Source: an uncultured virus (IMG/VR IMGVR_UViG_3300030000_000004) (lineage: Duplodnaviria; Heunggongvirae; Uroviricota; Caudoviricetes). From it: a stretch of 64,000 nucleotides of DNA. Below are positions 5,854 through 64,000 of this stretch, in pieces. The notes beneath the pieces are model-generated. The model ran no database searches, had not been told where the DNA came from, and saw only the letters and a list, made by a program, of their open reading frames with translations. The stretch's first letter is position 1, and each line of letters starts with the position of its first letter. The position numbers and the translations under genes are program-made. The DNA lies in IMG/VR virus record IMGVR_UViG_3300030000_000004, one strand, 5' to 3'.

Positions 5854-5861
5854 TATAAATA
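5854..5861 (+). promoter_or_regulatory. T4-type late promoter
   Basis: TATAAATA 25 nt upstream of the ORF 5887 start. Confidence 0.8.
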
Positions 5862-5886
5862 GAATATTATTATTGCGCGTGTAAAT

Positions 5887-9189
<3,303 letters not shown>

Positions 9190-15817: not shown

Positions 15818-16420
15818 TTAAACAAGTTTAGCTTGTCCGGATTGTGGAGTACTAAATGTGACGGTTACAGTATTCATGGTATCAAAAGTTATTGACATTG
15901 GTTGAACTTCTTGGTTACCAACAAATATTCTAACAATCGGATATCTACCTAACCCGTGTGCAATTGACCAAGTCGTTGATGGAGTCGTTTGATAGAACTC
16001 ATATGCATACGTTGGCAATGCTTGACCTTCTTGTGATCCTGAAAGGACAACAACTTTACCCTGTGTTGATGAAGCAAACGACACAGTTATTTGATTAGCA
16101 CTATCAACCGAAATATCATCAGGTAAAATCACTCTATTGTTGAGATCATAAACCATTATTGAAACGTTCGTCGTGTTAAGTGGATGTGAAATTACCCAAC
16201 TAACAGCACTAGTATTTTGAATGTGAGTATAAGTGGTTATCTCATTTGTTAATGGAACCCAGGTTGGTAATTGATCAACAATATCAACGCAGATATAAAG
16301 GATACGATCCTTAAATACAATTTGACCTACTTTAGGTGTTGCTGGGAAATACGTATCTAGAGGAATAACAGCCTCTTTTAAAGCATTCTGTTGTAAGTGT
16401 GCTTCGCCAAAAAATTTCAT
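15818..16420 (-). CDS. virion protein with two WxIxH beta domains
   Basis: N-terminus resembles that of ORF 16538-18976; two tandem C-terminal domains. Confidence 0.7.
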   Translation of the reverse strand: MKFFGEAHLQQNALKEAVIPLDTYFPATPKVGQIVFKDRILYICVDIVDQLPTWVPLTNEITTYTHIQNTSAVSWVISHPLNTTNVSIMVYDLNNRVILPDDISVDSANQITVSFASSTQGKVVVLSGSQEGQALPTYAYEFYQTTPSTTWSIAHGLGRYPIVRIFVGNQEVQPMSITFDTMNTVTVTFSTPQSGQAKLV

Positions 16421-16480
16421 AATGATTACCTCTTAAGAATTGATAAATCTATTTATTCGTTTCGTACAATATCTTCACAA

Positions 16481-16510
16481 AATAAAAGGGAGATTGATCT
16501 CCCTTTTATT
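16481..16510. terminator. intrinsic terminator after the 812-aa fibre gene (symmetric)
   Basis: AATAAAAGGGAGAT-TG-ATCTCCCTTTTATT. Confidence 0.8.
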
Positions 16511-16537
16511 GTTTTACAGATTTAAATCTGAATCAGA

Positions 16538-18976
16538 TTAAACTGCTACAGAAGTCTTAACACCAGTAACGATAACCTTACAAGCCACTGGGGAAGTAAA
16601 GGTAACAGTCAATTGATCAGCACTGTCGAAGTGGATACTTTGTGGAATAACAACTTCGTCAGAAGCAGTTTCAACAATAGTAACGTTACAGTATTTTTGA
16701 CCAATGTTGTGTCCAACTACGTGAGTTGAAGCTGAAGAACCATCATACAAGAAGTATGTTGTTTGGTTTTCAAATTGTGAAGTACCACCATTGTAAACCA
16801 ATGTCTGTCCAACAACTGGAGTATCAATAGTTACATCGGTTAATGAGTCAAGAGCTTTTCCAACTAAAGATACAGCACCTGCAGTAACTGAGAAGTCAGC
16901 AGCATCAAAGCTTGCAAGACCCTTAGCAGCATCAGTTGCATCAGCTACGTTGATAGTAACTGAACCATCAGTAGCAACAGTGGTGATAGGAGCAGAACCG
17001 CCAACAACACTGAATGAAGAACCTAAAGCAGTTGAACCAGCACCAGTAGTACCAGTGTAGCCAACAGTGCTAAATGCTAACTGTGCATTATCAACACCAC
17101 CTGCCTTAATAACAACGTTACCAGCAGTTACTGCGAAGTCAGCAGTAGCGAAAGTAGCAACACCCTTCTGAGAAGAAGAAGCATCAGCAATTGTCAACGT
17201 GAAGGTTGATGTACCAGCTGGGGATTCAGTAACCAAAGTAGAAATACCTTGAACAGAGTCACCCTTAACTTGAAGAGTATCACCAAGCACAAGTGCATCA
17301 GTACCAACATCACCATTGATAGTGAATGATGGGTGAAGCAACATTGCATTTGTAACACCGCCTGCACTGATCTTCAAACCAGAAGCAGATTGTTCCAAAC
17401 CAGCACCATCAAGAACGAATGTCAATTGGTCACCAGTGTTTGTACCAGTAAGCTGAACAGCTTTACCAGAAACAATATCAATACCAACTTCGTCAGTAGG
17501 CAATTGAGCAATACCTGCACCCAAATTAACGCTTAATACATTACCAGATTTTGACAAGCCATCACCAGCAGTAATTTGACCAGTACCAGTGAATTGAACC
17601 CATGCTGTACCAGTGAAAACATAACCAGATTCGTCAGTCTTATCAAACAATGCCCATCCATCTGCAGGAGTATCACCAGCATTTACAGCTGTAGCAGAAG
17701 TAGCAGTGTAGATTTTTCCATCAGTCGTGTTAAGGTAACGATTACCAACTGTCATACCACTTGTAGGTACAGCTGCGACGACTGCGGTAACTGGAGCTTG
17801 CCAAGACAATCCACCAGCTAAAGAATCAACGTAACCCTTTGTAGCAGCATCGGTCGCTACGGTTGGAGAACCAACAGCTGCAACTTTATTACCACCCATA
17901 TTAAGATCACCAGTCATTGTGTCACCAGCTACGTTAACGTATACGGTATCAACCAATGCAGTAATATCAGCTGTAACAACAGGAGTATTACCAACTACGC
18001 GACCCTTGCTATCAACAGTCACCTTGCTTAATGATCCAGTAGCTGCTTGGGTAACAGTAGCAAGACCGAATGTTGTATCGGTTGATACACCATCACTAGC
18101 ACCAGTAATAACCAAGTCAGAAGAAACAACAGCTAATGCACGAGTTGTTGCAGAACCATCAGCAGTACGTACTACGTAACCGAAAGATGTAAGACCTTCA
18201 ATAGCAGCCAAGTCATTTGCCAAAGCAAATGTTGGTTGACCTGCAATACCAGCTGGGTCAGAAATTGTCAAACCTTCAGTTGGAGCAACAAGCGTACGTG
18301 CTGCGAAAATGTTATCAGCAGTTTGAACGATAATACCAGTACCTGAAAGGCTAGCAAGTGAAGTCAAACCAGTGTCTAGAGGTTGCTTAAGATCCAATTG
18401 ACCTTGAATACCAGAAGTAACGCCATCAACAAAGTTCAATTCTGTTGTTGAAAGAGTAGCACCGTCAAGAATGTTTAATTCGGCTGCTGAAGCAGTTAAA
18501 TCGGATACTTCGCTAACTGTCAATGTGTTATTGACCCATGCGGTACCATTGAACTTAAGGAACTGTCCGTCAGTTGGTGTAGAAATTGTTACATCACCAA
18601 GTTCAGCCAAAGTATCTGCACTAGCTGCTTTATCAGCCAACAAAGTCAAAGCTTCTGTTACGCTTCCAGCAGCTGCAATAACTGGAACACCTGTAAGTGC
18701 TGATGAGTTGAATACACCATTTGAAGATACGATAGTGCCAAGAGAAGCTTCAATAGAATTTACTTCTGTTTGAAGATTTGCTGCATTACCACCAGTAGCA
18801 AAAGAAACCCATGCTGCTCCATTGTTGTAATAGAAAAGTGCGTCGGTAGTATTGAATACTAAACGACCCTTTTGATTTGAATCAAAAGTTGGGGTTGATG
18901 CTAATCTTTCAAAATATACATTTTGAATTTCAGAAGTTGAATCTGAATTAAGAACTAAATTACCATTAAGTTTCAT
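16538..18976 (-). CDS. fibre-like virion structural protein
   Basis: Gly/Thr/Ala-rich; GDTMTGDLNMGGNKV...TDAATKGYVD fibre motif; repeated ADA..KG.A.F..ADF.VTAG; own promoter and terminator. Confidence 0.75.
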   Translation of the reverse strand: MKLNGNLVLNSDSTSEIQNVYFERLASTPTFDSNQKGRLVFNTTDALFYYNNGAAWVSFATGGNAANLQTEVNSIEASLGTIVSSNGVFNSSALTGVPVIAAAGSVTEALTLLADKAASADTLAELGDVTISTPTDGQFLKFNGTAWVNNTLTVSEVSDLTASAAELNILDGATLSTTELNFVDGVTSGIQGQLDLKQPLDTGLTSLASLSGTGIIVQTADNIFAARTLVAPTEGLTISDPAGIAGQPTFALANDLAAIEGLTSFGYVVRTADGSATTRALAVVSSDLVITGASDGVSTDTTFGLATVTQAATGSLSKVTVDSKGRVVGNTPVVTADITALVDTVYVNVAGDTMTGDLNMGGNKVAAVGSPTVATDAATKGYVDSLAGGLSWQAPVTAVVAAVPTSGMTVGNRYLNTTDGKIYTATSATAVNAGDTPADGWALFDKTDESGYVFTGTAWVQFTGTGQITAGDGLSKSGNVLSVNLGAGIAQLPTDEVGIDIVSGKAVQLTGTNTGDQLTFVLDGAGLEQSASGLKISAGGVTNAMLLHPSFTINGDVGTDALVLGDTLQVKGDSVQGISTLVTESPAGTSTFTLTIADASSSQKGVATFATADFAVTAGNVVIKAGGVDNAQLAFSTVGYTGTTGAGSTALGSSFSVVGGSAPITTVATDGSVTINVADATDAAKGLASFDAADFSVTAGAVSLVGKALDSLTDVTIDTPVVGQTLVYNGGTSQFENQTTYFLYDGSSASTHVVGHNIGQKYCNVTIVETASDEVVIPQSIHFDSADQLTVTFTSPVACKVIVTGVKTSVAV

Positions 18977-19020
18977 GAGTTATCTCCTAGGATTGTTGAC
19001 TTAAATTATTCCGTACTGTT

Positions 19021-19028
19021 TATTTATA
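19021..19028 (-). promoter_or_regulatory. T4-type late promoter
   Basis: TATAAATA on the - strand upstream of the fibre gene. Confidence 0.75.
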
Positions 19029-19254
19029 GAATTCGTCTAGTTGCCGTTGTTAAAGCCTTAATTGCTGAATTAAAAGCGACAGGTTCAACCAACACTGAAC
19101 CCAAATCATAATCCATAAGAACCTGACTCGGTACTTCAGGAAAAAAGAATATACCTTTGTTCCCAATCTTTTCAATGGTTTCTAACTTAAAACCTAGAAC
19201 TTTTAAAGATGCAGCAAGAATAATATCTTGGGTTTCTATTGATTTGTTTTGCAT
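19024..19254 (-). CDS. small protein resembling DUF5659 family
   Basis: ETQDIILAASL..LGFKL...F.F pattern (recalled resemblance). Confidence 0.6.
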   Translation of the reverse strand: MQNKSIETQDIILAASLKVLGFKLETIEKIGNKGIFFFPEVPSQVLMDYDLGSVLVEPVAFNSAIKALTTATRRIL

Positions 19255-19294
19255 ATTATTTCCTATTGTTACATTGCTATAAATCGTATAAGTT

Positions 19295-19302
19295 TATTTA
19301 TA
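19295..19302 (-). promoter_or_regulatory. T4-type late promoter within an inverted repeat
   Basis: TATAAATA on -; arms TTGCTATAAAT / ATTTATAGCAA. Confidence 0.7.
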
Positions 19303-19314
19303 GCAACTAACGAA

Positions 19315-20286
19315 TTAAAATGCAAAAATCATAGCTCTCCCAGAAATAGGAGAGCTAAACATTACAAGTAATGTGTTATTTTCTATTATTTTTATTTTAT
19401 CAGGAATGATAACTTCCCAGTCATCATCGTAAACTGTCACTTGGCATCTAAAAGAATTCATGTTATGTGTAACTAACCACTGAACAGAATCAACCGATTG
19501 AACATGTTCGTAGCCAGAAACATTACCAGTGCCGCCCGTGCCACCTCCACCTGGTATTGAATCAACTTTATTATTTAATCGTTCTAGTGCTTCTTGAACA
19601 TTTGATGCATTTGGAAGAGTTGATATAGGTAGAATATCAATTGATGTTGCTTGATGTCTCCAACCCACATCACCAGACAGATGATGATTTAAATCTGATC
19701 TAAGTTGAACAATATCAACATTATTTATTAAACCTGATATTGTGAGGCTTTTAGTTGATATAAGATTACCATCAGCATCAATTCTGAATACTGGTGAACC
19801 ACCAAAAATATTACGAACAGAAACTAAATCGACTATAGGAACAACACCAGAATCAGGTTCAATTTTTAATGGTGTTGTTGAACGTGATTTAGGAGAAATT
19901 AACCAATGATCACTATCTTGAACGATTGTATTGATTGTACTAGATGAACCTAGAACTTCTAAGTCACCGGTTATCGTTACTTTTCCAGTTTCAGAATCTA
20001 TTTTGAAATAGATACCATCATCAGTATCATCGGATATTGTTAAATCTTTACCCGTTGACAACTTAATATTTGCTGATCCATTGACTGTTTGACTACTGTC
20101 ATAGACATGCTGGAGCGACAGCATTTGACCGCCGCCTGGAGCAGAACTCTGTCCATCATCGAACAGCAACCCTCTACCATTAACTGTCCAAGATTCGTTA
20201 GATGTACCACCAGCATTTATTATACCACCATTAGGTAGTTGCCCTAGTATACCATCTGTTTCTAAAATAATTGGTTTATTGCTCAT
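19315..20286 (-). CDS. virion structural / fibre protein
   Basis: ASNVQEALERL segment, Gly linker, C-terminal W.V.H domain. Confidence 0.65.
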   Translation of the reverse strand: MSNKPIILETDGILGQLPNGGIINAGGTSNESWTVNGRGLLFDDGQSSAPGGGQMLSLQHVYDSSQTVNGSANIKLSTGKDLTISDDTDDGIYFKIDSETGKVTITGDLEVLGSSSTINTIVQDSDHWLISPKSRSTTPLKIEPDSGVVPIVDLVSVRNIFGGSPVFRIDADGNLISTKSLTISGLINNVDIVQLRSDLNHHLSGDVGWRHQATSIDILPISTLPNASNVQEALERLNNKVDSIPGGGGTGGTGNVSGYEHVQSVDSVQWLVTHNMNSFRCQVTVYDDDWEVIIPDKIKIIENNTLLVMFSSPISGRAMIFAF

Positions 20287-58670: not shown

Positions 58671-58678
58671 TATAAATA
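58671..58678 (+). promoter_or_regulatory. T4-type late promoter
   Basis: TATAAATA upstream of gp21. Confidence 0.8.
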
Positions 58679-58706
58679 AATCATATTGATTTCTGAGGAA
58701 CTTTCC

Positions 58707-59324
58707 ATGATACCACAAATTCTTATTGAATACTACGACCCAACTTCAGTGAAGTTGGTTGAAAGCCGTGATAATCTTAAAAACCTTTATTTAGCTGGAA
58801 GAATAATGACAGCTGAACAAAAGAATCTTAACCAACGAATTTATCCTAAAGCAGAAATTCAACGCGCAGTTAATCTTATAACTGAAAAAGCTAAAGAAGG
58901 AACTGCTATTGTTGGTGAATTGAATCACCCTGAAAATCTTTCTATCGATCTTAAGAATGTATCTCACATTATTACTGAAGCATGGATGGATGGTGATAAT
59001 GCAGTTGGTAAATGTAAGATTTTAAACACTCCATCTGGAATGATTGTTCAAAATTTGATTGATGGTGGTGTTAAGTTAGGTGTATCTTCACGTGGTACAG
59101 GTAATGTTACTACTGAAGGTGTAGTTGAGGATTTTGCCTTTGTTACTTTAGACATTGTTTCTCAACCTTCTGGTCCTGGATGCTATCCAGATGTCATTCG
59201 TGAAGCTAAAGAACATACAAAGATTTTGACTCTTGCTGAAGCAGTTGTTCATGATCCTAAGGCTCAAAAGTATCTTCAGCTTGAAATTCAAAAATTCTTA
59301 AGATCACTAACAGGAAAGAAATAA
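58707..59324 (+). CDS. gp21: prohead protease (T4 gp21-like)
   Basis: KNLNQRIYP, GELNHP, VSH, LNTPSG, GVSSRGTG, DIVSQPS; start moved to the ATG after GAGG. Confidence 0.95.
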   Translation: MIPQILIEYYDPTSVKLVESRDNLKNLYLAGRIMTAEQKNLNQRIYPKAEIQRAVNLITEKAKEGTAIVGELNHPENLSIDLKNVSHIITEAWMDGDNAVGKCKILNTPSGMIVQNLIDGGVKLGVSSRGTGNVTTEGVVEDFAFVTLDIVSQPSGPGCYPDVIREAKEHTKILTLAEAVVHDPKAQKYLQLEIQKFLRSLTGKK

Positions 59325-59325
59325 T

Positions 59326-60168
59326 ATGTTAATGCAAGATTTACTACAGCTTAAAGAAGCTAACGATAAAAAAATCTATCTTCAATTCCCAGGTGGTGAT
59401 AATCACTCTGGTCCATTCAAGTCTGAAGAAGAAGCAGAACAAAAATTAGACAAACTTCTTTCACGTGCAAAATCACAAGGCTACGATCAAGAAGAAATTG
59501 ACAATTTGAAATCATTGAAGATCGTTACTGAAGCTAAGGTTACTGGAGATTCATTTAGAGTGTCTTGGACTGGTTATGGACGTAAGGCCCCAAAGACTGT
59601 TGATGCTTCATTCTTTGATGATAATGGTTTTAGTGCTAAAGCTAAAAAAGCTATTTTGGCTTTAAAGGTTAATGATGAATGGACAGATGGTGGTTCAACT
59701 GACAGTGTAACTGTTAGAAAAATAAAAGCGGGTAAAATCACTGAATCAGCCGATAGTGACAAAGATGCTATCATTTTGAAAATTGCTAAAAAATATTTTG
59801 ATGTTGATACATTGGCTACAAGAAAATCAGATGCATACGATTTCTATGATATCGCTGTTTGGTCTATGAAATCAGCTCTTGAAGCTGCATACAAAGCCGG
59901 CGCAGCATCTAAGTCTTTAAAAGAAGGTAAAGAGTATGAAGATTCATCTGACTTTGAAAGTGCCGCAAGTAAAATTGGAGATGCATTTAAGAAGCTTAAG
60001 AAAGAATTAGGATCTGAAGAAATTAAAGATTGGATGAAACAGACAGATAGCAATTTTGGTGGTAATTATCGTTTTGCTACTAGAATTGAATCAATCAACG
60101 CAGCAGTTAAAAAGTCAGATAAAGATTTTGATGCTTTATATAGCGATTTGGTTAAAGTTTCAGAATAA
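59326..60168 (+). CDS. internal head polyprotein including a DUF6900-like module
   Basis: Modules separated by LKEA, VTEA, ITES, LKEG; DTLATRKSDAYDFYDIAVWSMKSALEAAYKAG. Confidence 0.65.
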   Translation: MLMQDLLQLKEANDKKIYLQFPGGDNHSGPFKSEEEAEQKLDKLLSRAKSQGYDQEEIDNLKSLKIVTEAKVTGDSFRVSWTGYGRKAPKTVDASFFDDNGFSAKAKKAILALKVNDEWTDGGSTDSVTVRKIKAGKITESADSDKDAIILKIAKKYFDVDTLATRKSDAYDFYDIAVWSMKSALEAAYKAGAASKSLKEGKEYEDSSDFESAASKIGDAFKKLKKELGSEEIKDWMKQTDSNFGGNYRFATRIESINAAVKKSDKDFDALYSDLVKVSE

Positions 60169-60180
60169 CTAGGACTCAAT

Positions 60181-61023
60181 ATGAATGAACAATTAAGACT
60201 AAGACAATTAGCAGGACTTTCAACTGATCGTGCTGTTATGGAAGCAGGAAAAGACAAATTTATTTCTTCAGTAAAGGTTAAAGTTGAACCACCTGAAGGT
60301 TTATTTGCTAAAGAATCAAAAGCAAAGATTGTTAAATGGTTAAAAACAAATCATACTGATCTTCAAAGTGCAATGTCTTCATTAAATTTCTATATCAATA
60401 GGGCTGGTAAAAATTTAGATGCAGATAGAAAGGCAGAATTAGAATCAGCAAAAGATGATCTTAGAGCTGCATTTAATGTAAAGGAATCTTTTGATGCGAA
60501 TGCATTCAGACGGATGGCCGGACTCCCACAGATAAATATAAGAGAAGAAGATGCTGCTCCTGAAGCAAGTGATACTCCTTCTCCAGACGAATCAACTCCC
60601 CCTGCCGATAGTGATACTCCACCTGCTGAAGATGAGGAAGAAACATTACCAGCTATTATCAAGAAGATTGCTAAATCAATCCAAGGTAAAGAAGGTGAAG
60701 AACTTGAAGCTGCACTAATGAAAGTCTATGATGCTGGTGTTACCGATGGTAAGAAACAAGCTGAAGAAGACAAAGAAACTCCACCAGAAGATGGTGCCCC
60801 AGAAGGCGAAACTGCAGAACCAGAACCAGAAGATGAAGTTACTGAAGGTGTCAAAGTAATTTTGAAGGGTGGCAGTATTGGATCCAAACCTAGTGTAGGT
60901 AAAGAATTTACCGGTGATGATGCAGATACAAAAGCAAAAGAATATGCTGCTAGAATGAATAAAATTCTATCACCTGGCGAAAAATCATACTACAAAATGA
61001 AATATGTGGTTGTGAAAACCTAA
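60181..61023 (+). CDS. internal head polyprotein including a DUF3175-like module
   Basis: RLRQLAGL; VMEA, VKES, IREE, VTEG; SAMSSLNFYINRAGKNL...LESAKDDLRAAF. Confidence 0.65.
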   Translation: MNEQLRLRQLAGLSTDRAVMEAGKDKFISSVKVKVEPPEGLFAKESKAKIVKWLKTNHTDLQSAMSSLNFYINRAGKNLDADRKAELESAKDDLRAAFNVKESFDANAFRRMAGLPQINIREEDAAPEASDTPSPDESTPPADSDTPPAEDEEETLPAIIKKIAKSIQGKEGEELEAALMKVYDAGVTDGKKQAEEDKETPPEDGAPEGETAEPEPEDEVTEGVKVILKGGSIGSKPSVGKEFTGDDADTKAKEYAARMNKILSPGEKSYYKMKYVVVKT

Positions 61024-61039
61024 ATGACTAGGACAAATA

Positions 61040-61420
61040 ATGTCAAAAGAACTACTAAAAGCGATGTTGAACAACTTGATCAATGATCACCAGGAAGCAG
61101 CAACTCTTGATTTGCACTCATATTTTGTTGCCAAGATGTCGAAACTTTCAGAAGCCCAAGGGGCTGATGGTAAGAAGCCTCCAAAGATTAGTATTGAAGT
61201 TGATAAGAAGTCCAGAACATTAAGTGGATCGGTTTGGTTAGATGTCAAATCAGTATCAGAGTTTAAGAAAATCTTTTCTGATGAACATCCTTGGTCAAAT
61301 GATCTTAATGCGAAACTTAAACCTTACAATTTATCATTCCGCGATATCACAGATTATGAAATTGATCCTTGGAATGAAGGATATGAAATGGAATTTGAAG
61401 TTAAATATAAAACTAAGTGA
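61040..61420 (+). CDS. prohead core-like leader fused to an unknown domain
   Basis: N-terminal ~35 aa paralogous to ORF 61493, then LSEA. Confidence 0.65.
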   Translation: MSKELLKAMLNNLINDHQEAATLDLHSYFVAKMSKLSEAQGADGKKPPKISIEVDKKSRTLSGSVWLDVKSVSEFKKIFSDEHPWSNDLNAKLKPYNLSFRDITDYEIDPWNEGYEMEFEVKYKTK

Positions 61421-61492
61421 CAATTAAACAAAACCGAATTGGGAGCCGGTAGCTCCCTCCAACCAATGGCTCATAGCCTAAGGAGATAATAT

Positions 61493-61669
61493 ATGGACAA
61501 AAGAGAAGCACTTAAATCAATGTTAAATGCATTGATCAATGATAATCAAGAACAGGCAGCACTTGACCTTCATGGATATCTAGCTGCAAAAATGCAAGAT
61601 GTTGCAGGTTTGACTCAACAAGCTCCAGAAGATGCATCTGAAACTGTTGATGAAATAACACAAGACTAA
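61493..61669 (+). CDS. small acidic prohead core protein (58 aa; not in the ORF track)
   Basis: TAAGGAG RBS; MDKREALKSMLNALINDNQEQAALDLHGYLAAKMQDVAGL...; upstream of the scaffold gene. Confidence 0.75.
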   Translation: MDKREALKSMLNALINDNQEQAALDLHGYLAAKMQDVAGLTQQAPEDASETVDEITQD

Positions 61670-61734
61670 TTTGTACGTTTTTACTTTGAAAGCATTGAAA
61701 AGTGCTTGATTTTTCACGAATTTTTACGTAACTG

Positions 61735-61742
61735 TATAAATA
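61735..61742 (+). promoter_or_regulatory. T4-type late promoter for scaffold/capsid genes
   Basis: TATAAATA about 120 nt upstream of gp22. Confidence 0.8.
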
Positions 61743-61864
61743 AAAATGTACGTTTAACGCAGGATCATAAAAATTTTAATTTTTGTGCATCACGTCAAAG
61801 TTCAAAGCCATTAAAGACGGCTAAATTCCCAGTCTTTAATTCCCATAAAATAAGGAGAAACTGA

Positions 61865-62749
61865 ATGGACGAAATCCTACAGAAATTGCTAAATTCTGAG
61901 CTTTTAAGCGAAGATGCTAGAGCAGAAATCTCTACTCAATTTACAACTTTAGTTGAAGAGTATAAATCTACTGTTCGCGAAGATGTAACATTGCAAGTTA
62001 GAGGTGAGATTGCTGAACAATGGGCCAACGAACGCGACAGCTTAATTGAAAACGTCGAGAAATTTGTTGCAACTACACTCACTGAAGAAATAGCCGATTT
62101 GAAGGCAGACATTGAACGTTTCCGTGATCTTGAAGCAGAACATGCTGAGAAGATTGTTGAAGCTAAACACTCAATGGCTGAAACTCTTTCAGAAGAACTT
62201 GATCAACTTGTTGACAAAATGGACGCATTCTTTGATTTGCGTTTGTCAGAAGAATTCAAAGAACTTCGTGAAGACCTTGAAGTTGTTAAACAAAATGAAT
62301 TCGGACGTAAAATCTTCGAAGCATTTGCTACTGAATTTAATGGTGCACATGTTGACGAAGACTCGATTCAATCTAAGCTTCAAGCCGCAGTTGCTAAGTT
62401 AACTGATGCAGAAGGAACTATTGCTCAGCTTGAAGAATCTCAAGCTAAGATGGTTCGTGAATCAAGATTAGACAAAATACTTGCTCCTCTTAATGGAAAG
62501 AAACGTGAACAAATGTCCTTTGTTCTTCAAAACGTTGAAACTTCCCGTCTAGAAGAAGCATATAACCACTTCATCGGTCGTGTTCTTAAGGAAGATTCTT
62601 CCGAAGTACGTCCTGAAGCAGATGCAAAAACCCAACCTTTGGTTGAGTCCGTTGTAGTAACTGGTAATGAACAGACAGCTGTTCAGCCTGTAGTAACCGA
62701 AGCTGGCGATAAGTATTCTCAATTGAGAAAACTTGCTGGTATGAATTAA
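61865..62749 (+). CDS. gp22: prohead core scaffold protein (T4 gp22-like)
   Basis: Acidic coiled coil, NEFGRKIFEAF, C-terminal LRKLAGM; directly before the major capsid gene. Confidence 0.9.
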   Translation: MDEILQKLLNSELLSEDARAEISTQFTTLVEEYKSTVREDVTLQVRGEIAEQWANERDSLIENVEKFVATTLTEEIADLKADIERFRDLEAEHAEKIVEAKHSMAETLSEELDQLVDKMDAFFDLRLSEEFKELREDLEVVKQNEFGRKIFEAFATEFNGAHVDEDSIQSKLQAAVAKLTDAEGTIAQLEESQAKMVRESRLDKILAPLNGKKREQMSFVLQNVETSRLEEAYNHFIGRVLKEDSSEVRPEADAKTQPLVESVVVTGNEQTAVQPVVTEAGDKYSQLRKLAGMN

Positions 62750-62770: not shown

Positions 62771-64000
62771 ATGGAACTATATGAAAACTGGCAAGAAGCC
62801 AAAGAGACCCTTCTTGAAGGGCTACCAGAAAGCAAGAAAAAGATCTTAGCTCCGGTTCTTGAAAACACCATGCAACACTTGCAGGAAACTGCTTCTGCTG
62901 GTACTCAAACTGCAGGCTCAATCGGAAACTTCCAAAAGATCGTTATCCCTATGATCCGTCGTATTATCCCTGGCACTATTGCTACGGAATTGGTCGGTGT
63001 TCAACCTATGTCCGGTCCAGTTGGACTTGTTTACTCAATGCGTTTCTTGTACGCTGAAGCAGTTACTGCTACAGCCGCTTCAGGTTCCTTTGATGCAGGC
63101 GTCAACCAAGATATTTCTGTAGGTACTGAACTTTGGGCTAACAACAGCAAGACAAAACGTTTCTATTCCTCTTCTGACGCTTCAGCACCTGCTGGCGGTC
63201 CAGCTGCTGGAACTTCTACCGGTTTCGCATCTGCAACAGCAGACTATGAAGCATTTGGTGGTCGTAAAATGACTCTTGAAGTCTTGAAACAAACTGTTAC
63301 CGCTGGATCACGTAAGTTGCAAGCTACTTGGACTCCTGAATCCATGCAAGACTTGAAGGCTTCCCACGGTCTTGACATCGAAGCTGAAATTACAGCATCT
63401 CTTTCCGCAGCAGTCGTTTCTGAAATCGACAATGAATTGATCAATGACTTGGTTGCCCTTGCAGGTACCACCGAATCATTCGACATGGCAGGTACCTTCA
63501 CCGGTGTTCCTAACTATGTTGGTGATCGTCATGCTGTTCTTGGTATCCTTATTAATAAGGTTGCTAACGAAATCGCTCGTAAGACCCGCCGTGGTCAAGC
63601 AAACTGGATCGTGGTTTCCCCATTGGTCGTATCAGTATTGCAATCAGCTGCTAAGTCTGTGTTCGCACCAGCAGTTGCCGGTTCATTCGAAGGTCCTAAC
63701 AACACTAAGCTTGTTGGTACATTGAATGGTTCTATCAAGGTTTACACCTACATCTATCACGATCAAGGTACTGAACCAATCTTGTTAGGTTTCAAAGGCG
63801 GATCTGGTGAAATGGACAGCGGTTACTTCTACTGCCCATACGTACCATTGATGAGCTCTGGTGTTGTTGTATCACCTGATACATTCAACCCACACGTATC
63901 CTTGGCAACAAGATACGGTAAGGCTACCTTTACTAACACTGGAACTTCCCTTGGGAACAGCGCAGACTACTACGGTCGCATAAGTGTAGCAAATCTTTCA
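62771..64000 (+). CDS. gp23: major capsid protein (T4 gp23-like), 3'-truncated by the window; not in the ORF track
   Basis: TAAGGAG + ATG at 62771; IPMIRRIIPGTIATELVGVQPMSGPVGL, VTAGSRKLQATWTPE, IARKTRRGQANW, YCPYVPL, TRYG. Confidence 0.97.
   Translation, partial: MELYENWQEAKETLLEGLPESKKKILAPVLENTMQHLQETASAGTQTAGSIGNFQKIVIPMIRRIIPGTIATELVGVQPMSGPVGLVYSMRFLYAEAVTATAASGSFDAGVNQDISVGTELWANNSKTKRFYSSSDASAPAGGPAAGTSTGFASATADYEAFGGRKMTLEVLKQTVTAGSRKLQATWTPESMQDLKASHGLDIEAEITASLSAAVVSEIDNELINDLVALAGTTESFDMAGTFTGVPNYVGDRHAVLGILINKVANEIARKTRRGQANWIVVSPLVVSVLQSAAKSVFAPAVAGSFEGPNNTKLVGTLNGSIKVYTYIYHDQGTEPILLGFKGGSGEMDSGYFYCPYVPLMSSGVVVSPDTFNPHVSLATRYGKATFTNTGTSLGNSADYYGRISVANLS

Follow-up and report, generated by a model that had tools for sequence, protein, structure and literature searches.

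What do the genes between the prohead protease and the scaffold of a jumbo phage encode? The question is raised by a 64,000-nucleotide stretch (the window) of an uncultured virus, IMG/VR record IMGVR_UViG_3300030000_000004, in which the gene order is portal, S77 protease, four open reading frames (ORFs) named A (starting at 59326), B (60181), C (61040) and D (61493), scaffold and capsid. The virus is a jumbo myophage resembling RsoM2USA: its major capsid protein (MCP) shares 62.6% identity with the one of Ralstonia phage RsoM2USA and 62.1% with the one of XacN1. A sequence-only reading had proposed that this cassette is a plug-in system of polyproteins which are tagged for the prohead, cut into small effectors and delivered at infection. 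That proposal is partly borne out, by plug-in modules swapped at xE sites, by a portable RxLAG leader followed by a site and by a late-promoter context, but in the window the tag is limited to a single gene. We put at about 0.6 the probability that the cassette encodes internal head proteins that are brought in by leaders, cut and partly ejected.

Putative cut-site motifs and module joints in the cassette

Relatives were sampled by means of the scaffold, 80 loci being taken from 270 confirmed matches (two of them, L005 and L006, do not differ from the window); 84 loci were examined, of which 65 have both protease and scaffold. The protease-scaffold gap is empty (10-16 bp) in 10 of these 65 and spans 517-4106 bp in the remaining 55. 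With 38 distinct gene sets among the 65 loci, the cassette is highly variable in length and content. Homing endonucleases and spurious overlapping frames, 23 of the listed ORFs in all, were removed together with their copies; the cassette protein set then comprised 121 proteins, or 106 at 70% identity.

Every motif position given by the sequence-only reading was found in its place: LKE11/A, VTE69/A, ITE140/S and LKE200/G in ORF A; VME21/A, VKE102/S, IRE122/E and VTE222/G in ORF B; LSE38/A in ORF C; LQE39/T in the MCP; and LKED, LVES and VTEA in the scaffold (the slash marks the putative cut). Expected counts were taken from 300 composition-keeping shuffles, and 45 other window proteins served as controls. 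The motif [ILV]xE[ASGE] occurs 9 times in the four window genes (3.8 expected; 7 of the 300 shuffles attain 9) and 157 times in the 106 non-redundant cassette proteins (94.0 expected; reached by 0 of the 300), as against 55 times in the controls (55.2 expected, no excess). For [ILV]xE[ASG] the counts are 134 in the cassette proteins (63.5 expected) and 41 in the controls (43.1). Swapping E for D or Q in this motif gives 64 (54.8 expected) and 18 (19.6) in the cassette proteins; the enrichment is specific to E, absent for Q and slight at most for D. Sites are therefore enriched in the cassette proteins and not in the controls, in keeping with the original proposal. Within residues 4-34, [ILV]xE[ASG] is present in 39 of the 85 cassette proteins other than D, as against 3 of 45 controls; the N-terminal leaders that end in a site measure 11, 21 and 38 aa in window ORFs A, B and C.

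The sites coincide with the places where modules begin. Among 65 instances of 18 modules that were seeded by hand (another two, internal ones, being excluded), 61 start at most 16 residues from an [ILV]xE, compared with 26.0 at random positions. Since this count rests on hand-picked seeds and is partly circular, two other tests weigh more. When BLAST chose the boundary, 22 of 58 internal alignment starts fell on [ILV]xE[ASG] (7.2 expected), and D and K control motifs showed no enrichment at these starts. A blind HMMER search with the first 141 residues of ORF A found 14 proteins, or 13 after a fragment of A was dropped; module A1 is present in 5 and module A2 in 8 of them, amid differing neighbours. 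A site precedes the module in 10 of the 12 cases with a testable start (3.8 expected) and follows it in 6 of the 7 with a testable end (2.1 expected). Module swaps in relatives thus break at xE sites, as had been predicted. The description of these proteins as unrelated small modules bounded by xE sites stands as far as the joints at module edges are concerned, but across relatives the modules are not purged of sites (see below). A purge inside the window's own modules (1 site, 6.9 expected) was set aside as partly circular and not reproduced in relatives. Architecture, module boundaries and tag portability are direct observations; the proteins themselves are predicted polyproteins of up to four modules per gene, with internal sites separating independent modules.

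ORF B illustrates the exchange. DUF3175 is a standalone gene of ~90 residues in BCSR5, BcepSauron and phiM9, and its ends coincide with the VME and VKE sites of B. In BCSR5 (L106 2941-3231) and BcepSauron (L105 2965-3234) the standalone DUF3175 has a different, Arg-Ala-type leader, which suggests an exchange of modules between phages whose protease codes differ. Among 13 aligned B-like proteins, DUF3175 is lost between the two tags in 3 (L007, L008 and L039), and the C-terminal module is altered or missing across the set. The structure model of B (mean predicted local distance difference test, pLDDT, 65; predicted template-modelling score, pTM, 0.31) has discrete folded units and short tag helices; three sites fall in parts of the model with low confidence, and VKE falls where a helix ends. 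In ORF A, module A4 is modelled with confidence (pLDDT 89) as a helical hairpin and has no match in PDB or among cultured phages; a word-indexed search found no full-length or shorter relatives of ORF A.

The scaffold-like tag and other leaders

The scaffold ends in a basic amphipathic helix, in which A is invariant and L and G are kept in at least 90% of 38 scaffolds; the PA5oct and Phosso scaffolds also terminate in an RxLAG helix. The same helix is found as a leader in 38 of the 106 cassette proteins, 37 of these 38 having [ILVM]xE at most 22 residues downstream (14.7 expected), and [LIM]AG[LIM] occurs 51 times in the cassette proteins (2.4 expected) and once in the controls (2.1). The sequence-only reading had seen the LRKLAGM of the scaffold return as LRQLAGL and FRRMAGL in ORF B and, more weakly, as MQDVAGL in ORF D. 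The two copies in B score 20-25 bits, as does the scaffold, and stand; MQDVAGL fell below the 10-bit display cut-off and has to be given up. B is the only tagged gene of the cassette, while A and C use other leaders, that of A being of a short M-[KL]-x-x-[ED]-L type with no scaffold-like tag. The three LAG copies of the window differ in their Ala and Gly codons.

Tag and site also stand at the start of lone genes elsewhere in the complete genomes of relatives (L092, L096 and L097) and precede a flavodoxin-fold enzyme in L034. One lineage has a scaffold that ends in IAG, and there all 7 leaders read IAG as well, as against 0 of 32 elsewhere. The scaffold Gly is lost in three loci; no LAG leader is found there, but there is almost no cargo either. 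The nearest database record, a fragment of 17.6 kb, gave no match to the tag. Known copies in PA5oct and RsoM2USA escaped the tag profile search, however, so that its blanks prove nothing.

Some tagged proteins were noted in passing. The LAG-tagged protein of L096 (1495-2082) is cysteine-rich, belongs to no known family and adjoins an endolysin-like gene. In aquatic phages (L130 268-1833) a nucleotidyltransferase-like domain, called by eye and with no Pfam match, is joined in one protein to an internal LRKLAG tag and an xE site. In a marine phage protein (L107 901-1633, minus strand of the locus), LAG helices, three at most, are combined with acidic linkers rich in [IV]EE sites. RsoM2USA ORF88-90 (L173 6164-8655) and the cargo of the L058 lineage (L058 3388-5209) share, besides their leaders, a short C-terminal module, possibly a second, C-terminal tag.

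Proposed packaging, cutting and delivery

Under the reading that we favour, the cassette proteins would be made late and together with the protease, as the promoter motifs suggest. Each would be carried into the prohead by its leader: the M-[KL]-x-x-[ED]-L type in A, the RxLAG copy in B (twice) and a copy of the D domain in C. The RxLAG copy may well dock where the scaffold end itself docks, on the capsid precursor or the core. The gp21-type protease would then cut in exposed linkers, removing the leaders and freeing folded modules of 6-10 kDa; that the cassette proteins are packaged and cut seems likely, and so does the splitting of polyproteins after [ILV]-x-E. Leaders and acidic linkers would exit and the folded modules would mainly remain, some being ejected with the DNA. 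By analogy with T4 IPI* this retention and ejection is a tentative proposal, and the delivery of effectors into the host slightly more tentative. New modules would be acquired by in-frame insertion after an existing leader and site. We consider doubtful the broadest version, in which the last scaffold helix is a portable capsid-binding tag, the protease a polyprotein processor and each virion the injector of a library of interchangeable 6-10 kDa modules for counter-defence or takeover, which could be read off the sequence by itself; in it, modules such as DUF3175 would pass between unrelated phages, adopting the local leader.

In T4, gp21 cuts after L/I-X-E, a 10-residue capsid targeting sequence (CTS) packages foreign proteins and IPI blocks GmrSD, according to the available parts of PMC9026906, PMC9958956 and PMC5694885. 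With the IPI-III/Alt CTS system, as far as the first two describe it, the cassette shares a homologous S77 protease, hydrophobic-x-Glu sites and short removable N-terminal leaders on variable small proteins, known here from sequence alone; as in T4, such a site also ends the capsid propeptide and is enriched in the scaffold, again judging by sequence. Unlike that system, the cargo here would come as polyproteins, each with as many as four modules and with sites inside the chain, rather than as one mature protein per gene, three leader types occur, one of which copies the scaffold C-terminal helix, V is common at P3, and the genes lie between protease and scaffold. We read the mechanism as probably that of the CTS system, with polyproteins and a scaffold-copy tag as putative additions. 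The T4 core proteins gp67 and gp68 are likewise small head-operon proteins with acidic tails, and the ORF D homolog has the same position in PA5oct, but ORFs A-C are hypervariable with folded domains and ORF D lies 3′ of the protease, not in the portal-protease gap. Jumbo-phage head propeptides with some shared N-termini and several sites are also found in the ejection proteins of phiKZ and SPN3US, cut at A/S-x-E, but these are long propeptides on single large mature proteins, and the available part of the source (PMC5694885) describes no swappable strings of small modules or scaffold-copy tag. In P22, scaffold fusions load cargo and the scaffold C-terminal domain binds coat (PMC9962691, available part). 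The engineered P22 fusions resemble the cassette in using the scaffold C-terminus as a loading handle with protease release, whereas here the handle would be natural, N-terminal or internal and of ~8 residues, with putative coat binding. A literature search by title and start of abstract, with most subscription journals outside its coverage, found no published description of a scaffold-copy tag or of such polyproteins.

Mass spectrometry of cultured relatives gives weak hints of packaging. The available part of the RsoM2USA report names 10 virion bands, including ORF89 and ORF132 (PMC8504454). Both of these start with a TFKQF-type leader ending in xE; six genes of that phage begin with such a leader, and in a seventh the motif lies close to the end. 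The presence of these genes, whose leaders we take to resemble the T4 CTS, among the bands has p ~0.008 for 7 of 486, a post hoc value. For PA5oct, table S5 of PMC7318152 gives 8 peptides for gp151, the D homolog, and 2 for the sole other LAG protein (its locus number inferred from neighbours), which is thereby virion-detected, and the scaffold is not detected in that table. The available part of the XacN1 virion paper (PMC5852040) holds nothing bearing on cassette proteins.

The functions of the modules were sought by several routes. PADLOC defence families gave 0 matches for 4 window proteins. Against solved folds the window modules had no match, B and A4 yielding generic helical matches only (best VIA, Z 7.3), and the BFVD fold search gave 4 matches at E <= 0.001, all uncharacterised. 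Among 102 cassette proteins of relatives, Pfam matches that stand out are DUF3175 (8 proteins, 2 of them below the curated cut-off) and one FMN reductase; a literature search for DUF3175 found none. Because no module has a known activity, the term effector is at most an inference drawn from rapid module turnover.

Several observations weigh against the favoured reading. Pfam, PADLOC and fold searches assigned no activity to any module. The plain T4 motif [LI]xE occurs 5 times in the four window genes, with 8.0 expected, and BLAST alignment ends are not enriched on sites (7 of 73; 8.3 expected). Within 65 module cores of relatives the sites number 42 (48.5 expected; strict motif 11, with 10.7 expected), and as they are not depleted, survival of the modules would depend solely on folding. 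The covariation of I and L between scaffold and leaders is a single lineage or event, and some internal tags in L-scaffold phages read IAG too. The RsoM2USA cassette genes are absent from the 10 bands, in a source whose available part terms its identifications 'most likely' (PMC8504454). In PA5oct the LAG protein is represented by 2 peptides only, and of the 17 genes in its stretch 12 are virion-flagged as well; in the same source (PMC7318152, available part) the D homolog was in a near full-length gel slice, and capsid coverage is 97.5%, so that propeptide peptides are among those seen.

The lack of purging inside the cores also suits another account, in which the cassette encodes an accessory scaffold of gp67/gp68-like core proteins: LAG helices would cross-link shell or core, xE sites would serve for shredding, the pieces would exit and the modules would be passengers. 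T4 gp22, gp67 and gp68 are indeed cut to small peptides (PMC9958956, available part). The head-operon location fits this account, as do the conservation of ORF D with its match to a PA5oct protein in the gp67/68 position, and ORF B with two tags and acidic tracts, the middle part of which may be of this kind. The marine clade protein, being mostly LAG helices and acidic xE linkers and lying outside the head operon, looks like an accessory scaffold, which means that the tag can serve in a protein of that type and counts against a cargo role. However, the modules are conserved, folded domains with standalone gene counterparts, and sites gather at their edges, whereas in the scaffold they are spread throughout. 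Tags are found, too, at the start of an enzyme and of lone genes outside the operon, and the cassette can be empty. We therefore hold an accessory scaffold to be unlikely as the main role.

Less likely again is that the modules are packaged and cut but act within the particle, in DNA organisation, charge balance or as an ejection aid, and not on the host. Three window modules are basic (pI 9.4-9.7), and in T4, going by the available part of PMC9026906, IPII and IPIII are without an established host target and IPIII affects assembly; several other modules are acidic or neutral, however, and the fast turnover of unrelated modules in close relatives would fit host conflict better. It is very improbable that the motifs are helix-type words arising by chance, or recombination seams at the DNA level, with neither cleavage nor targeting. 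The motif is short, and the missing excess of plain [LI]xE in the four window genes would agree with chance, but this explanation is largely refuted by the boundary statistics with their D and K controls, by the differing Ala and Gly codons of the LAG copies and by the capsid E39, invariant in 38 proteins.

If the internal-head-protein reading is true, the leader-site-module grammar predicts which small uncharacterised proteins of these jumbo phages come pre-loaded in the virion, and supplies a ready list of candidate injected counter-defence proteins overlooked by gene-level annotation. How proteins come to be localised in the scaffolding core is 'mysterious' according to the available part of a T4 review (PMC9958956). 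A cargo tag with the same sequence as the scaffold C-terminus would bear on this question and provide a minimal tag for packaging into large capsids.

Promoters, ORF D, ORF 5887 and further features

Table 1. Positions of the cassette, its flanking head genes and ORF 5887 in the window
Feature	Position	Strand	Basis
ORF 5887 with late promoter motif; leader ends LIE	5854..9189	+	late promoter, leader, module match
T4-type late promoter motif TATAAATA	58671..58678	+	5′ of protease and cassette
Prohead protease, gp21-type (Peptidase_S77)	58686..59324	+	35% identity to T4 gp21, E 2e-22
ORF A leader, 11 residues, ends LKE	59326..59358	+	comparable leaders on 32/106 cassette proteins (loose pattern)
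ORF A module 1, 58 aa, no family	59359..59532	+	in 5 other proteins, other contexts, xE-flanked
ORF A module 2, 71 aa, basic, no family	59533..59745	+	in 8 other proteins, other contexts
ORF A module 3, DUF6900, 60 aa	59746..59925	+	Pfam PF21841, aa 146-195, E 4e-20
ORF A module 4, 80 aa, helical hairpin	59926..60165	+	12 instances after differing leaders/modules
ORF B leader with scaffold-like helix LRQLAGL, ends VME	60181..60243	+	tag profile, model
ORF B DUF3175 module, 81 aa, basic	60244..60486	+	Pfam PF11373
ORF B second tag FRRMAGL, ends IRE	60487..60546	+	tag profile, aligned homologs
ORF B acidic linkers (net charge -25) enclosing conserved helical hairpin	60547..60846	+	17 instances
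ORF B variable C-terminal module, 58 aa, basic	60847..61020	+	also in L008; other homologs swap or lose it
ORF C leader, duplicate of ORF D domain, ends LSE	61040..61153	+	sequence match
ORF C cargo module, 88 aa	61154..61417	+	no relative among cassette proteins
ORF D, small conserved core-like protein: helical domain and acidic tail	61493..61669	+	23-sequence family
Late promoter motif	61735..61742	+	5′ of scaffold
Scaffold, ends LRKLAGM (62723-62743)	61865..62749	+	xE sites 11 vs 3.4 expected
MCP propeptide, ends LQE39	62771..62887	+	invariant E39 across 38 capsid proteins (45-86% identity)

The motif upstream of the protease was assigned by what we take to be the T4 late promoter consensus. 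It also stands directly 5′ of the scaffold and of ORF 5887, and the window holds 13 such motifs (6.9 expected; 13 attained in 2 of 100 shuffles), while sigma-70 promoters show no excess over chance there. The protease probably starts at ATG 58707 and retains an N-terminal LIE site, as in T4 gp21.

ORF D itself seems to be not cargo but a conserved protein of the core. It matches the N-terminus of PA5oct gp151 (hhalign 87%, E 4e-6). Family searches of the window proteins gave no gp67 family match, and its profile against a single T4 gp67 sequence reached a probability of 0.2%, in a comparison that is insensitive with one sequence. Atlas matches were all below 0.9 and unnamed for D, with none usable for B.

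ORF 5887, which had been said to carry the same site type, is a probable further tagged polyprotein on sequence grounds. Its site count is not enriched (4, with 5.2 expected), but one of its sites does align with a module start elsewhere: one HMMER-found polyprotein shares a module with it, both starting at aligned sites (E 2e-6). In the 1100-aa product of the gene (5887-9189), the N-terminal domain weakly resembles RNA ligases (Pfam E 0.06); the protein also has a long acidic tract and, towards its C-terminus, modules. A PA5oct gene that resembles it by eye is without the leader and not virion-detected.

Genes that look by eye like homing endonucleases lie within the cassettes of L008 (3630-4148), L031 (767-2476), L044 (6043-6687) and L058 (5981-6712), and such insertions could drive cassette exchange. 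Between ORFs C and D (61441-61457) there is a G+C-rich inverted repeat, terminator-like on the minus strand. At window positions 15818-20286, a domain of ~65 aa is common to three neighbouring genes (phrog_21918 region).

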